A DNA stretch of 47,496 bases from Parcubacteria group bacterium (lineage in GTDB: Bacteria > Patescibacteriota > Patescibacteriia > UBA1558 > GWA2-36-10): NCBI GenBank assembly GCA_003104935.1, contig PQAE01000005.1, positions 68,034 to 115,529 of the forward strand, in the 5' to 3' direction. This document shows positions 18,756 through 33,945 of this stretch, piece after piece. The first letter of the stretch is position 1; every line of letters begins with the position of its first letter. The notes under the pieces are model-generated. The model saw only the letters and a list, made by a program, of their open reading frames with translations. It searched no databases and was not told the origin of the DNA. A program made the translations under genes and the position numbers.

Positions 18756-21488
18756 TTATAGATTTTCAATTTTTTCCAGGTCGCCCCAGTTTGGTCCGGC
18801 CTCCACATCTACTTTGAGTGGCACTGGTAATTTATAGATATCCTCCATCGTCTCTTTGACAAAGCGGGCAACATTGGCAAGTTCCTTTTTAGGCACTTCC
18901 AGTACCAGGGAGTCGTGCACTTGGAGTATCATCTTAGCTTCTGGGCAGAGCTTTGGCAAGTCGGTCTGGATTTTGATCATAGCCATCTTGATCAGATCAG
19001 CCGAGGTGCCCTGCAGAGGCATATTGATAGCCATACGCTCGGCCGCAGCGCGCAGCATGGGCATAGTAGAGTTTATCTCCGGTAGCAGGCGGCGGCGGCC
19101 AAATAAAGTCTGGACATAGCCGTTTTGGTGGGCAGAGTTCTTGGTTTTTTCGATATAGTCCTTGATTTTTTTATAAATCTGAAAATATTGGGCGATAAAT
19201 TCTTTAGCTTCCGTACGGCTCAGGTCAGTACGCTGGGACAGGCCCAATGAGCCGAGGCCATAAAGTATGCCAAAGTTAACTTCTTTGGCGGTGCGGCGGA
19301 TATCTTTGGTTACTTGTTCTAAAGGTATTTTGTGGATTTCCGCGGCCGTGCGGGCATGAATGTCTTCATTGTTTTTAAAACTCTTCGTCATCACCGGGTC
19401 ACCTGATATGGCCGCGGCGAGGCGTAGCTCTATTTGGGAATAATCAGCTGAGAGCAGGGTAAAGCCCGAAGGAGCGATAAAGGCTTCTCTAATTTGTCTG
19501 CCTAGCGGCGTACGGATAGGTATATTTTGTAGATTAGGGTCGCTAGAGGACAGTCGACCGGTAGTAGTAATAGTCTGATTAAAGCTGGTGTGTACTCTAT
19601 TTGTCATGGGGTTCACCATTTCCGGCAAAGCACTGACATAAGTGGATTGCAGTTTGGCTAATTCACGGTATTCTACCAGTAAGGGGATAATAGGATGTAG
19701 ATCCTTCATTTTATCTAGTTCAGCCGCGGCCGTGGACAGACCAGTCTTGGTCTTTTTGATGCCGCCGCTACTGATTTGTAGTTTTTCAAAAAGTATTTCC
19801 TTGAGTTGTAAGGGTGAGGCGATGTTAAATTCCTGACCGGCCAGCTTATAGATATTCTTGGTCAATTTACTCAGCTCGGTAGCGAATTTTTTTTCCAGCT
19901 TCCTTAAAAAAGCCTTATTCAGGCAGATGCCGTTTAGTTCCATCTGGGCCAATACCGGCATCAGGGGTAGTTCCATCTTAATCAGCAGGTCATAATTTTT
20001 ACTAGCCTGAAGTTCGGGCAATAATTTGTAATACAGGCGTAGGCAAATATCTGCATCTTCAGCGCCGTACCAGGCCAGTTTTTCCAGAGGTATTTTGGCT
20101 ACATTAATTCCCTTCTTTTTTTTTGGGACCTCGTCCAACAAATCTGATAATTTTAATTTTTTGTAGCCGAGATAGCTAAATGCTAATTCCTCCAGCCTCA
20201 AGCCGCGGCTGGGATTGATTAAGTAGGCGGCTATCAAAGTATCAAAAACTACGCCCTTTAATTCTATATCTAAATTTTTTAAAACCTTATAATCAAATTT
20301 AATATTATGACCAACTTTTTCTATTTCACCATCTTCTAAAATAGGCCGCAATTTTTTTAAAGCCACTTCCCGGAAATCCGAATCAGTCAGATTAATATAA
20401 TATCCACTCTGAGGATTCCAGGAAAAAGACAATCCTAAGATTTGGTCACTAATAACGTTCAGGCCGGTTGTTTCCGAATCTAGGGCAAAAAGTTTTTGCT
20501 CCCTTAGTTCTACTAAAAAATTATCAAGAGCGTCAGAATCACTGACGGTAATATAGTGGTGGTCTTTTTCGGCAAAGGTCGGCTCGATAATAGGTTGTTT
20601 TTTTACGTCATGAGGCAGACGGGCCAGTAGAGAATTAAAATCCAATTTTTGAAATATCCGATAGACTGCCTGCGGATCATAGTGCCAAAAATTTGCTTCG
20701 GACAAATGCCACTGCAAGGGAACGTCTTGCACAATAGTAACCAACTCTTGGCTAAGCAGGGCGTCTTTTTTCTGCTCTTTGAGCAAAATTTTTATACGCT
20801 CTTTGACGTCGCTTTTGTCCAGTTTTTGGTAGAGGTTTTCCAGACTGCCAAATTCACGAATTAGTTCTAAAGCACCTTTTTCGCCAATGCCGCTGACACC
20901 CTTGATGTTGTCCGAGGCGTCGCCGCGCAGGGCCTTGAAGTCAATGAGTTGTTTTGGGTCCAAATCATAACGGTCGCGGACCGCTAAAGCGTCATAAGCC
21001 ACGGTTTCGGAAAATCCCTGCTTGAGAGTAATGACCTTGGTGCGATCATTGACCAGTTGCAGAGTGTCTAGGTCACCGGTGATAATTAGGGTTTCAATAT
21101 CTTGGTGGCGTTCATAGGCTTCTTTGGCCAGAGTACCGATGATATCATCGGCTTCAAAACCTTCTTTACTTAAGATAGGAATACTCAGCGCAGTCAGAAC
21201 TTCTTTGGCGATAGGAAATTGATCGTAAAACTCCTCAGCTTTTTTTATCCGTTGAGCCTTGTATTCTTTATATTTAAGATGGCGAAAAGTTTTTCCCTTG
21301 AGATCAAAGCAAGCGATCATGTAATCCGGTTTGAGCTCCTTGATAATTTTTAATATTAAAGAAGTAAAACCATAAACCGCGTTAACCATGACTCCGTCTT
21401 TGGTGGTCAGGGCCGGGATAACATGCCAGGCACGGTGCAAGAGGGAGTTGGAATCAATCAATACTAGTTTTTTGGTTTTTTTCTCCAT
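18756..21488 (-). CDS. polA: DNA polymerase I (5'-nuclease, 3'-5' exo-like and polymerase domains)
   Basis: Motif A DYSQIELR, motif B RRTAKEVNFGILYG, and motif C QVHDSLV. Confidence 0.95.
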   Translation of the reverse strand: MEKKTKKLVLIDSNSLLHRAWHVIPALTTKDGVMVNAVYGFTSLILKIIKELKPDYMIACFDLKGKTFRHLKYKEYKAQRIKKAEEFYDQFPIAKEVLTALSIPILSKEGFEADDIIGTLAKEAYERHQDIETLIITGDLDTLQLVNDRTKVITLKQGFSETVAYDALAVRDRYDLDPKQLIDFKALRGDASDNIKGVSGIGEKGALELIREFGSLENLYQKLDKSDVKERIKILLKEQKKDALLSQELVTIVQDVPLQWHLSEANFWHYDPQAVYRIFQKLDFNSLLARLPHDVKKQPIIEPTFAEKDHHYITVSDSDALDNFLVELREQKLFALDSETTGLNVISDQILGLSFSWNPQSGYYINLTDSDFREVALKKLRPILEDGEIEKVGHNIKFDYKVLKNLDIELKGVVFDTLIAAYLINPSRGLRLEELAFSYLGYKKLKLSDLLDEVPKKKKGINVAKIPLEKLAWYGAEDADICLRLYYKLLPELQASKNYDLLIKMELPLMPVLAQMELNGICLNKAFLRKLEKKFATELSKLTKNIYKLAGQEFNIASPLQLKEILFEKLQISSGGIKKTKTGLSTAAAELDKMKDLHPIIPLLVEYRELAKLQSTYVSALPEMVNPMTNRVHTSFNQTITTTGRLSSSDPNLQNIPIRTPLGRQIREAFIAPSGFTLLSADYSQIELRLAAAISGDPVMTKSFKNNEDIHARTAAEIHKIPLEQVTKDIRRTAKEVNFGILYGLGSLGLSQRTDLSRTEAKEFIAQYFQIYKKIKDYIEKTKNSAHQNGYVQTLFGRRRLLPEINSTMPMLRAAAERMAINMPLQGTSADLIKMAMIKIQTDLPKLCPEAKMILQVHDSLVLEVPKKELANVARFVKETMEDIYKLPVPLKVDVEAGPNWGDLEKIENL

Positions 21489-21536
21489 TTTCAGGGCTAA
21501 TTTAGCTTTTTAGTATAGTTATAATAGCATTTTTGG

Positions 21537-21560
21537 CTAAAAAAAACAGCCGGTCCGGCT
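21537..21560 (-). terminator. Intrinsic terminator ending the tRNA cluster
   Basis: The minus strand reads agccgg-a-ccggct followed by T8. Confidence 0.55.
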
Positions 21561-21568
21561 TTTAAATA

Positions 21569-21668
21569 TGGAGCGGGATACGGCCCTGCACCTCGCTTCG
21601 CGAGTGCAGGATCTTCGTTCGTCACTGCCTTCTGGGCAGTGACTCACTGCGAGAATTAACTCCACGGG
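21569..21668 (-). pseudogene. tRNA-Gly-derived degenerate copy with inserted hairpins, ending in ...cccgctcca
   Basis: The minus strand reads gtggagttaattc (compare gtgtagttcagtt) ... gaagatc ... ggccgtatcccgctcca (compare tccggtcacccgctcca). It is interrupted by a 9-bp hairpin (21621-21643) and an 11-bp hairpin (21585-21610). Confidence 0.45.
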
Positions 21669-21677
21669 TTTAAAATC

Positions 21678-21753
21678 TGGAGCGGGTGACCGGACTCGAA
21701 CCGGCGATCTCTTCCTTGGGAAGGAAGCATTCTACCAACTGAACTACACCCGC
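21678..21753 (-). tRNA. tRNA-Gly (anticodon CCC), CCA encoded
   Basis: Manual cloverleaf: acceptor gcgggtg/cacccgc, anticodon arm cttcc-ttCCCaa-ggaag, T arm gccgg-ttcgagt-ccggt, and discriminator U. Confidence 0.95.
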
Positions 21754-21827
21754 CTACGTAGATAAATTTAACAGAGTTAGCATCTTTTTTCAAATAAAAA
21801 ACAGCTTTCAAGGCTGAGCTTACTATT

Positions 21828-21914
21828 TGGTACCGGCGGCCGGAATTGAACCGGCACAGCTTTTAAGCTACAGGATTTTAAGTCCTGCGTGTCTACCAAT
21901 TCCACCACGCCGGC
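21828..21914 (-). tRNA. tRNA-Leu (anticodon UAA), long variable arm, CCA encoded
   Basis: gccggcgtggtggaattggtagacac...cagga-ctTAAaa-tcctg. It is 87 nt and uninterrupted. Confidence 0.95.
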
Positions 21915-21933
21915 CAAGTTCTTAAATTTTCAA

Positions 21934-22016
21934 TGGAGCGGGTGATCCCGCTTCGGGCGGGACGACCTTTTCCCTTGATGCGGTCGCCGTTAAATAATTA
22001 ACTTTGGCGGCCAATG
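21934..22016 (-). pseudogene. tRNA-Gly 3'-half-like fragment ending in cacccgctcca
   Basis: The minus strand reads tcaagggaaaaggtcg (compare ccaaggaaaaggtcg), then tcccgc-ccgaa-gcggga replacing the T arm, then tcacccgctcca (12/12 match). Confidence 0.5.
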
Positions 22017-22031
22017 ACCATAACAATTTTC

Positions 22032-22107
22032 TGGAGCGGGTGACCGGACTCGAACCGGCGACCTTTTCCTTGGCAAGGAAACGTTCTACCAACTGAACTA
22101 CACCCGC
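22032..22107 (-). tRNA. tRNA-Gly (anticodon GCC), CCA encoded
   Basis: Same scaffold as the CCC isoacceptor. The anticodon arm is tttcc-ttGCCaa-ggaaa. Confidence 0.95.
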
Positions 22108-22111
22108 CTAC

Positions 22112-22148
22112 CCCCGGATCAAGTCCGGGGTTTGGCGGGCAGGCCCGC
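22112..22148. repeat. Two GC-rich hairpins abutting the tRNA-Gly(GCC) 5' end
   Basis: ccccgga-tcaag-tccgggg (22112-22130; near-copy at 33923-33940) and gcgggc-ag-gcccgc (22135-22148). Confidence 0.6.
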
Positions 22149-22206
22149 TGTTTTAAGGCATTAACAGGCCTATCGCCCCCATATATTTGTTAATAATACT
22201 TTAGGT

Positions 22207-22234
22207 ATTATATAGAAAAATGACAAAAAGTCAA
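22207..22234 (-). promoter_or_regulatory. Promoter TTGACT-16-TATAAT for the tRNA cluster
   Basis: On the minus strand: -35 at 22229-22234 and -10 at 22207-22212, about 95 nt upstream of tRNA-Gly(GCC). Confidence 0.5.
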
Positions 22235-22301: not shown

Positions 22302-23516
22302 CTATTTTATGGGTATACTGGTATTACCAACTGTGTAAGTGGGATAATAATGTGTGCGGGCTGTTTTTAGATCGGCCAATGGTGCGATATCTAATCCAAG
22401 CTCCTTTAAAAAACCGTCAAAATAATTTTTGATCTCCTGCCCTGTCAATATCCCGCTCATTTCATCGGCCCCGCCTATAGTAGCAACATTAAAAGCAGTT
22501 ACTTCATTACCATTATCCATCTTTTCATCATGAAATGTCAAAATCAGTTTCAGATTATTATTAATCTTTTTTACTAATATTAAGCGGCTAGTAACTGAAC
22601 CAAGGCGTCGATAAACATTGTCATTTTCTAGCAGTAACTGAATGCTGCCAACGCCGTTAGACACCCACTTTCCTTCTGTAAGCTTAGCGCAATAATATCC
22701 ATTGATCGTACAGTCTGACTTGGTCTGAGCGATTTGATAGTCGGTAAAACTTATAAGCAGTTCTTTGTCATAGGCATTAAGGTCCTCTTTGATTACAGAA
22801 ACGCCGGCGGGCAAAGTGTTTGTGACTGAGGTGAGATTTACTATTTTTCCAAAGTTAAGGCCCCAAGTGTAGTTGAGGTCCGATATCCCAACATAATAAT
22901 TTGGAATAGAGGAGATATCGGCAGTGGTTGCGCCCAAACCAAGAAAGCGCATTATGTCATAAGCAACATTACCGTCTTTCATAAAATATCGTTTTCCGTC
23001 GGCTGGGTTGAGATACCAGGCCTGCCCTCGCGACTCTACCTGAAGCAGTATTTTCCCTCTTAATTTATTAACCAACCTATTGTCATAGTTGAGTTTGCCG
23101 TCACCAAGGGGATTGTAACCTTTCATTATTTCAGTTTTATCATCAAAACCATCGTTGTCGGAGTCGGCCTTGTTTGGATCAGTACCTATCGCCACCTCGG
23201 TTTTGCTAGGAATCCCGTCTTGATCATCGTCAGCATCATAAAACCCCACATTCTTTGCCAAACCAATCGGTATTTTTTCTAAATTTTTATTGGTAATGCC
23301 AAGGCCAAACTGACGTAGAATGTCATAAGCTGTGTCACCATCTTTTATGTAAATACGCCGACCAGTCTCCATTCCGTCCGGTATTACATACCAGGCCTCG
23401 CCATTTTTTTCTACTTCAAGTAAAATTTTTCCTTTTACTCTATCAACCACCGCCGCCCAAGAGATAAGTGGGAGCAATAATAATACTAACATGAGTAATA
23501 GAGAAAGCTTTTTCAT
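22302..23516 (-). CDS. Secreted protein with a duplicated ~55-aa domain and Asp-rich Ca-binding-like repeats
   Basis: Has a signal peptide (MKKLSLLLMLVLLLLPLISWA). The module GKILL(E/Q)VE..G.AWY..P......Y.KDG..AYDI(L/M)R..GLG occurs twice. DADDDQDGIPSKTE..DPNKADSDNDGFDDKTE resembles thrombospondin type 3 repeats. Confidence 0.7.
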   Translation of the reverse strand: MKKLSLLLMLVLLLLPLISWAAVVDRVKGKILLEVEKNGEAWYVIPDGMETGRRIYIKDGDTAYDILRQFGLGITNKNLEKIPIGLAKNVGFYDADDDQDGIPSKTEVAIGTDPNKADSDNDGFDDKTEIMKGYNPLGDGKLNYDNRLVNKLRGKILLQVESRGQAWYLNPADGKRYFMKDGNVAYDIMRFLGLGATTADISSIPNYYVGISDLNYTWGLNFGKIVNLTSVTNTLPAGVSVIKEDLNAYDKELLISFTDYQIAQTKSDCTINGYYCAKLTEGKWVSNGVGSIQLLLENDNVYRRLGSVTSRLILVKKINNNLKLILTFHDEKMDNGNEVTAFNVATIGGADEMSGILTGQEIKNYFDGFLKELGLDIAPLADLKTARTHYYPTYTVGNTSIPIK

Positions 23517-33893: not shown

Positions 33894-33945
33894 AAGCTAC
33901 GTTATTAATTTTATAGCTCCATCCCCGGATTAAGTCCGGGACAAG

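Follow-up and report, generated by a model that had tools for sequence, protein, structure and literature searches.

Introduction

Single-domain GIY-YIG proteins of the Ssn clade (cd10448) cut single-stranded DNA beside hairpin repeats (SRM), of which the Neisseria repeat (NTS) reads CGTCATTCCCGCGMAVGCGGGAATCYRG; cutting is influenced by the bases immediately 5′ of the palindrome, and binding by the C directly after it (Chenal et al. 2025, PMC11893778). The term tRNA has zero occurrences in PMC11893778. In this work we describe hairpins of a similar plan inside what we call ghosts, i.e., dead, displaced copies, whole or partial, of tRNA genes, in a glycine tRNA operon on the minus strand (positions 21537-22234) of a 47,496-nt stretch of contig PQAE01000005.1 from a Parcubacteria group bacterium (assembly GCA_003104935.1); this whole stretch is referred to below as the window. 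The hairpin of the first ghost, taken with its flanks, reads GTC-G-T-CCCGC..GCGGG-A-TC where the published NTS has CGTCATTCCCGCG..GCGGGAATC (PMC11893778), so that GGTCG-TCCCGC-loop-GCGGGA-TC follows the NTS plan with a stem one pair shorter. Further likenesses to the Ssn system are the many copies of small single-domain GIY-YIG genes in this genome, its two perfect NTS copies (one of them 93 nt from a GIY-YIG gene), and the hairpin in the leader of the operon, which in relatives is part of a composite element containing an NTS. Unlike the repeats of that system, however, the hairpin here takes the place of a tRNA arm inside a dead gene copy.

Integrative elements, too, leave partial tRNA genes behind as attL/attR repeats (van der Gulik et al. 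2023, PMC9897764), and a copy running from the anticodon loop to the CCA end is the classical layout of an integrase crossover (Williams 2002, as cited in PMC9897764). Our locus shares with these a working tRNA gene accompanied by a displaced partial 3′ copy ending in CCA. It differs from them in the distance between the two, which is 54-100 nt and not kilobases, in having neither island nor integrase, in the swapping of an arm for a palindrome, and in the occurrence of upstream and nested ghosts as well. Short GC-rich palindromes spread in a small genome, and sometimes inside RNA genes, recall the REP/BIME-RAYT system and the Rickettsia palindromic elements too, but the palindromes described here stand in for complete tRNA arms and are linked to duplicated parts of tRNAs. 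A search of the genome for the Y1 transposase of REP/RAYT systems (PF01797) gave no match, and this candidate was set aside.

The free-standing GIY-YIG homing endonuclease SegB of phage T4 reportedly lies in a tRNA gene cluster, in a region that is said to be inherited by gene conversion. SegB is a multi-domain phage enzyme, and we know of no hairpin-swapped ghosts associated with it. The likeness consists in a GIY-YIG nuclease gene among tRNA genes; the difference is that the nuclease open reading frame (ORF) is absent at this locus, though present at other ghosts, and that cutting of tRNA genes by the small proteins would be hypothetical.

Results

Ghosts homologous to tRNA-Gly genes, with an arm replaced by a hairpin, are present in this operon, and ghosts of this kind recur across tRNAs, genomes and phyla, with no conservation of single ghosts. 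We consider it rather likely that both CCA-ending pieces of the operon are non-functional relics of earlier tRNA-Gly copies, left by replacement of tRNA genes. The clearer of the two is ghost 1 (21934..21977, also called fragment 1 here), which reads CAAGGGAAAAGGTCG, then TCCCGC-CCGAA-GCGGGA, then TCACCCGCTCCA. It corresponds to the anticodon-loop-to-CCA part of tRNA-Gly(GCC), apart from one additional G and the exchange of the T arm for a 17-nt GC hairpin (21962-21946). Blocks of 15 and 12 nt are identical or near-identical to the working gene, and the local alignment scores 42, against a mean of 24.9 (standard deviation 3.3, maximum 38.5) in a null of shuffled fragments, for which the top score over all 46 tRNAs of the genome was taken. 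A previous, sequence-only reading of this DNA had proposed that each tRNA-Gly is followed by a degenerate 3′ copy, and that in the first copy a hairpin replaces the T arm. Both statements hold for ghost 1, and the observation as a whole is borne out; the second piece, discussed below, shares less with its neighbour.

The position of ghost 1 also fits an older gene. Its end lies 19 nt ahead of tRNA-Leu(UAA), and the Gly(GCC)-Leu(UAA) pair is kept across the family with spacers of mostly 0-36 nt, so that the ghost ends where the 3′ end of an old tRNA-Gly gene would be expected. A new working copy would have been installed right beside or inside the old one, whose pieces would be left as ghosts; in the case of ghost 1 the old 3′ part would remain at its ancestral distance from tRNA-Leu, with its T arm overwritten by a GC-rich palindrome. 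The corresponding spacers of the relatives G001 and G020 likewise end in ..GGGTCTCACCCGCTCCA, 19 nt ahead of tRNA-Leu, though they align poorly with ours and do not separate common descent from independent origin. Between tRNA-Gly(GCC) and ghost 1 lies a 54-nt filler (21978..22031), whose start is weakly like the post-ghost spacer plus the first bases of tRNA-Leu (GAAAATT...TTGGCCG). The local alignment score of this likeness is 16 against 11.4 in shuffles (standard deviation 2.1, p ~0.05), which is only a hint of a segmental duplication. The weak resemblance of this trailer to the ghost trailer and the tRNA-Leu start speaks for an account that we regard as unlikely on the whole, namely a plain local tandem duplication of tRNA 3′ parts by slippage or unequal recombination, with later invasion by generic palindromes and no causal tie to tRNA or GIY-YIG genes.

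The layout of ghost 1 bears on a further alternative, that of attR-type remnants of an integrase-mediated island inserted at the tRNA 3′ end and later almost wholly deleted. Ghost 1 spans the anticodon loop to the CCA, as in the classical crossover layout (Williams 2002, as cited in PMC9897764). It is a direct repeat of the tRNA's 3′ portion with its CCA, and a true integrase island exists elsewhere in the genome, between two copies of tRNA-Thr(GGT). On the other hand, the repeats are just 54 nt apart, and the copy is not colinear through the T arm, which is TCCCGC-CCGAA-GCGGGA, a swap unlike anything in att repeats. None of the five tyrosine recombinases of the genome is on this 115-kb contig (PF00589 is found on contigs C3, C7 and C12 alone), and the complete upstream ghosts and nested 5′ plus 3′ ghosts described below do not suit a one-sided att duplication. 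We therefore judge an origin as att remnants very improbable. The idea of tandem 3′-end duplications of the kind left by integration survives in its first half, since displaced tRNA 3′ copies are real; its integrase mechanism does not, given the 54-nt distance, the lack of an integrase on the contig, and arm swaps at many tRNAs in several phyla. The island itself (G000 C3:77309-83906) is ~6.5 kb long and carries two tyrosine recombinase genes, with the tRNA-Thr(GGT) copies as brackets.

The second CCA-ending piece, fragment 2 (21569..21677), stands behind the working tRNA-Gly(CCC) (21678..21753) and folds at -43.5 kcal/mol (z -4.22). It contains two long hairpins (21643-21621 and 21610-21585), as had been described, and ends in ...GGCCGTATCCCGCTCCA. 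The match to its own neighbour is just CCCGCTCCA (9 nt), beyond which the similarity of fragment 2 to the genome's own tRNAs is not significant (22.5 against a null of 25.9). Its final 14 nt, CGTATCCCGCTCCA (21582-21569), a tRNA-Gly 3′ end, are instead exactly the 3′ end of tRNA-Gly(CCC) in G018, a relative of another genus. The fragment as a whole occurs in none of the 38 family genomes searched, and an identical contig carrying it is present in a second sequencing study, where 21319-21908 are reproduced exactly. Fragment 2 is probably what remains of another tRNA-Gly(CCC) allele, a ghost of greater age and decay.

The working tRNA-Gly(CCC) bears marks of exchange as well. In an alignment of 11 tRNA-Gly genes its positions 1-24 and 47-76 are identical to those of tRNA-Gly(GCC) of the same genome, 350 nt upstream, whilst its middle part is identical to tRNA-Gly(CCC) of the relative G003. 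In relatives the two Gly isoacceptors differ in their stems and occupy separate loci. By this alignment, the gene is a recombinant with tRNA-Gly(GCC) ends.

The order of the operon, from promoter through leader, tRNA-Gly(GCC), first fragment, tRNA-Leu, tRNA-Gly(CCC) and second fragment to terminator, is as proposed from the sequence, according to a consensus scan, ARAGORN and Rfam. A sigma-70-type promoter TTGACT-16-TATAAT (22207..22234, 11 of 12 consensus matches) precedes a leader of ~95 nt rich in GC hairpins (22108..22206; fold -37.7 kcal/mol, z -2.85). From its sequence the leader has the hairpins GCGGGCCTGCCCGC (22148-22135) and CCCCGGACTTGATCCGGGG (22130-22112), the latter stopping 4 nt ahead of the working tRNA-Gly(GCC) (22032..22107; ARAGORN, and 73.4 bits with the Rfam tRNA model). 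The working tRNA-Leu(UAA) (21828..21914; ARAGORN, Rfam tRNA model) has no clear ghost, which agrees with its reported lack of a companion; between it and tRNA-Gly(CCC) is a weak stretch with terminator-like and promoter-like features. An intrinsic terminator (21539..21560, with its hairpin at 21560-21548 followed by a T run) closes the unit. Upstream, the gene for a 404-amino-acid, secreted-looking protein (22302-23516) separates tRNA-Cys from tRNA-Gly(GCC); in the relative G022 these two tRNAs are just 153 nt apart.

Since the fragments lie inside the transcription unit with no terminator ahead of them, they could be functional RNA parts of the operon, either a CCA-ending minihelix or stable hairpins with a role in insulating or processing the precursor, e.g., as a barrier to exonucleases or a safeguard against misfolding of the tRNA next to them. 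Both fold more stably than shuffles (z -2.15 for the spacer with fragment 1, against the -4.22 of fragment 2), tRNA-like geometry could persist where arms are swapped for hairpins of like length (a complete ghost in the relative G017 reaches 45 bits with the tRNA model), and ghost 1 could form an alternative 6-bp helix AGCGGG/CCCGCU with a free CCA. This helix, however, is impossible in the corresponding ghost of G009. Nor does a minihelix find its 5′ acceptor strand, as no GCGGGTG-type strand lies upstream and the minimum-energy fold pairs the arm hairpin, giving the 3′ fragments no acceptor stem with a free NCCA. Conservation is equally poor, with the Gly(GCC) ghost in 2 of 86 genomes and fragment 2 in 0 of 38, and the position, extent and hairpin sequence of ghosts vary between genera; Rfam, at gathering as well as permissive thresholds, yields just the three real tRNAs here. 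We thus hold a functional RNA to be improbable, although the stable hairpins may have a local role in the precursor, and the suggested co-transcribed CCA minihelix finds no support in the missing acceptor strand, the conservation or the Rfam search.

Replacement of tRNA genes, as favoured above, finds more of its traces around the genome, which measures 975 kb in 12 contigs (100% complete, a size typical of Patescibacteria) and has 46 tRNAs. Within 150 nt downstream, an exact 12-nt copy of the tRNA's own 3′ end is found for 6 of them, at 69-146 nt, and more have tail copies with one or two mismatches; in a control of 2056 mismatched tRNA/flank pairs, 12-nt tail matches were absent except for real neighbouring tRNAs. 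The flanks of tRNAs hold partial tRNA copies that are split or plugged by GC hairpins, and wreckage of earlier copies lies at at least 17 of the 46 genes. The motif GGTC(R)-(Y)CCCGC..GCGGG(R) occurs in 8 ghosts of this genome, exactly at the position of the T arm or, in one case, of the anticodon arm. At tRNA-Ile and tRNA-Asn the working gene, flanked by inverted repeats, is nested between the 5′ and 3′ pieces of a second copy. GC hairpins of related types also lie far from tRNAs, a point in favour of plain duplication with later invasion by palindromes. A full-length element would be expected to have hairpin arms set apart by a long insert, and a search of this genome for such split arms found none.

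Two more tRNA loci deserve mention. A tRNA-Tyr at the start of contig C6 (C6:1-900) is missed by ARAGORN; ahead of it an intact and then a broken GIY-YIG ORF alternate with two Tyr ghosts, the first a 5′ ghost whose anticodon loop carries an insertion, the second with a double hairpin in its T loop. At C2:74799-74895 ARAGORN calls a 97-nt tRNA with an irregular anticodon and without a definite identity.

Ghosts with the same hairpin are scattered over relatives. The pattern GGTCRYCCCGC-N3-9-GCGGGR has 29 matches in 21 of the 86 genomes of the order and none in a reversed control, and of the 21 matches in relatives, 19 have a tRNA no more than 270 nt away. In its strict form the Gly(GCC) ghost pattern is confined, among the 86, to this genome and G009; the G009 ghost has another palindrome, of 24 nt, instead of the T arm, and its acceptor strand fits G009's own tRNA. 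More broadly, five genera have tRNA-Gly(GCC) ghosts with a hairpin at the T arm, in varied layouts. In G009 and this genome a 3′ ghost follows the tRNA-Gly(GCC) gene; in G017, G063 and G064 a complete ghost, with the T arm alone exchanged, lies in the interval from the promoter to the working gene. For tRNA-Gly(CCC), the working gene of G003 is nested in the anticodon loop of a ghost that represents another allele, and the 3′ part of this ghost has a T-arm hairpin. The acceptor stems of ghost and working gene differ in G063 and G064 (GCGAGTG vs GCGGGCG), the ghost retaining the family-typical stem and the working gene having another, with compensatory changes. Such varied layouts over five genera are better explained by repeated events than by a single conserved element, and ghosts that are sporadic, differ in layout by genus and often represent an older or different allele are the marks of recurrent replacement and not of a conserved RNA. 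The complete ghost of G017 (L019:1411-1484), with its T arm replaced by a hairpin, exceeds the gathering score of the Rfam model with its 45 bits, so that ghosts of this kind may be annotated as tRNA genes.

The picture extends beyond the order. One genome per species was scanned with the pattern GGTCRTCCCGCC-N3-6-GGCGGGAT, which gives many chance matches in GC-rich genomes. The pattern prescribes GGTCR ahead of the hairpin but leaves the acceptor strand behind it and the adjacent tRNA unconstrained. In low-GC Bacteroidota, Ignavibacteria and Patescibacteria nearly all matches are tRNA 3′ ghosts directly behind a working gene for tRNA-Arg, -Lys, -Thr, -Pro, -Ser or -Ala. Several points speak against plain tandem duplication by slippage. 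The hairpin takes the place of the whole arm at its base and is not placed at random, and it does so with a single sequence type over several phyla and a wide range of tRNAs; slippage does not predict ghost and working copies of different alleles; and the 29 matches, against 0 in the control, are almost all beside tRNAs. What can be said for plain duplication, apart from the trailer and the hairpins far from tRNAs, is that most ghosts are without a nuclease gene.

A conserved element of ~130 nt, CTCGATTCG...CTCACTCGTGGTC...GAGTGTCCCGAGCGAA...TCGAGGGAC, was also seen directly after tRNA genes in several genera (L007:1578-1720, L019:1581-1720, L016 in the Gly-Leu interval, L003 after tRNA-Leu, and G000 C1 ~1990-2090); it has no Rfam match.

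The second leader hairpin leads to the NTS from another direction. The stretch at 22112-22130 recurs at 33923-33941, ahead of a tRNA-Glu ghost, with one mismatch and a chance expectation of 0.01, which bears out the recurrence noted from the sequence. Its presumed likeness to the T arm of tRNA-Gly goes as far as a CCGG/CCGG stem and includes nothing beyond it, and the idea that the leader is a still older ghost (GGGGGCG.., with two hairpins) was dropped, as no homology could be demonstrated. Of the 39 family genomes, 12 contain the hairpin core CCCGGATCAAGTCCGGG, in 30 copies altogether, whereas a reversed control gave 0. In relatives it forms the second, inverted hairpin of a composite element that opens with a canonical NTS-type hairpin. 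This element is ~85 nt long and consists of the NTS-type hairpin GTCATTCCCGCGAAGGCGGGAATC, ~35 nt with an inverted repeat of their own, and then CCCGGATCAAGTCCGGGATGAC; it has 2-5 copies in relatives, especially in the genus g4 (L193-L220, e.g., L204:1441-1525), and its ends are inverted (GTCAT...ATGAC), like those of a miniature transposable element. Taken together, the NTS-like plan, the NTS copies of the genome and the tie of the leader to NTS elements would place the hairpins at these tRNAs in the Ssn-type repertoire in a loose sense, strict family membership aside.

Small GIY-YIG genes are found next to some of the ghosts. The genome has nine single-domain ORFs of 78-114 amino acids that match PF01541 only, with no match in PDB or NCBIfam, and five of the nine adjoin tRNAs or ghosts: one directly behind tRNA-Arg(CCT), one 34 nt past a Thr ghost that has a hairpin for its T arm, one in the interval from a 5′ tRNA-Met ghost to the working tRNA-Met gene, and two, one of them broken, within the stack of tRNA-Tyr ghosts at a contig end. 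In other phyla, 5 of 42 low-GC loci have a small GIY-YIG ORF no further than 300 nt from the ghost hairpin. At L075 it fills the space from tRNA-Pro to the ghost and has its stop codon inside the ghost, and at L130 it sits exactly between tRNA and ghost, the latter having both its anticodon arm and its T arm as hairpins (7-bp stem, 3-nt loop) and being followed by a repeat of the tRNA's terminator. A Bacteroidales metagenome-assembled genome (L092, 1-1700) carries at least four tandem 345-bp units, each made of a GIY-YIG ORF and a tRNA-Pro ghost in which a hairpin forms the T arm. A conserved stretch, (A/G)GAAGAAAAGC, was observed just 5′ of the start codon of the ORFs at C12:64905, C2:105719, C6:10373, C8:9778 and C6:662, and this sharing suggests one multi-copy family with its own 5′ region.

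Discussion

How might such ghosts come about? Break-and-repair or recombination at tRNA genes would duplicate part of a gene and leave the rest as a ghost, and the hairpins and small GIY-YIG nucleases may take part in this, a participation that we put forward tentatively and regard as rather less probable than not. The natural T-arm context, GTC-G-stem-loop-stem-TC, would already mimic the recognition motif of such a nuclease. One could go further and speculate, with somewhat greater doubt, that Ssn-like GIY-YIG nucleases and their hairpins make up an undescribed system that attacks tRNA genes at their arms, swaps the arm for its own palindrome and forces replacement by a new or foreign copy, and that would in this way keep the tRNA genes of ultra-small bacteria and Bacteroidota in constant turnover, making them chimeric or replacing them horizontally. 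All 21 ghost-bearing genomes of the order have at least three GIY-YIG genes and none of the 16 genomes with two or fewer has ghosts, although this threshold of three was picked post hoc and related genomes are not independent.

Several observations weigh against the replacement account or its nuclease step. No GIY-YIG match occurs at 21.5-22.3 kb or elsewhere in the window, the nearest on the contig (C5:29655-29999) being outside it; in relatives a nuclease gene is near just 1 of the 21 ghost loci, and over the 86 genomes the number of GIY-YIG genes correlates weakly with ghosts (Spearman 0.21, p 0.05). The likeness to the NTS is itself partial (GTC, CCCGC/GCGGG, TC). The published SRM pattern, used as a regular expression, captures no ghost hairpin, and it is not enriched in the genome, with 5 matches against 1-8 in shuffles. 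The exact exchange of a 17-nt arm for a hairpin of 17-19 nt could also reflect selection on RNA structure, and the evidence for the homology of fragment 2 amounts to 14 nt. Finally, no polymorphic alleles were seen in sequencing reads, among which no contig covers ghost 1. Metatranscriptome contigs touch just the tRNAs and derive from other organisms, and the direct Gly-Leu joints present in sequencing data belong to other organisms too, with 85% likeness.

Conclusions

Hairpin-plugged tRNA ghosts seem to be undescribed in print, and our literature searches found no description of tRNA ghosts with GIY-YIG genes. To these this work adds the chimeric tRNA-Gly(CCC), the evidence from alleles, the order-wide count of 29 matches against 0, and the tie of the leader hairpin to NTS elements. 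On the practical side, ghosts can be called as tRNAs, as with the one at 45 bits, and they break assemblies, the contigs here terminating in tRNAs.

The genes for tRNAs are usually viewed as the most stable of genes and as passive landing sites for integrases, whereas here their arms are exchanged for one family of hairpins, and some working copies are chimeras or belong to another allele. Should the nuclease link be true, the Ssn family would gain a second biological role, and the abundance of tiny GIY-YIG genes in Patescibacteria, with a median of 5 per genome in this order, would be explained; tRNA genes would then be turned over by a selfish or recombination-linked process.

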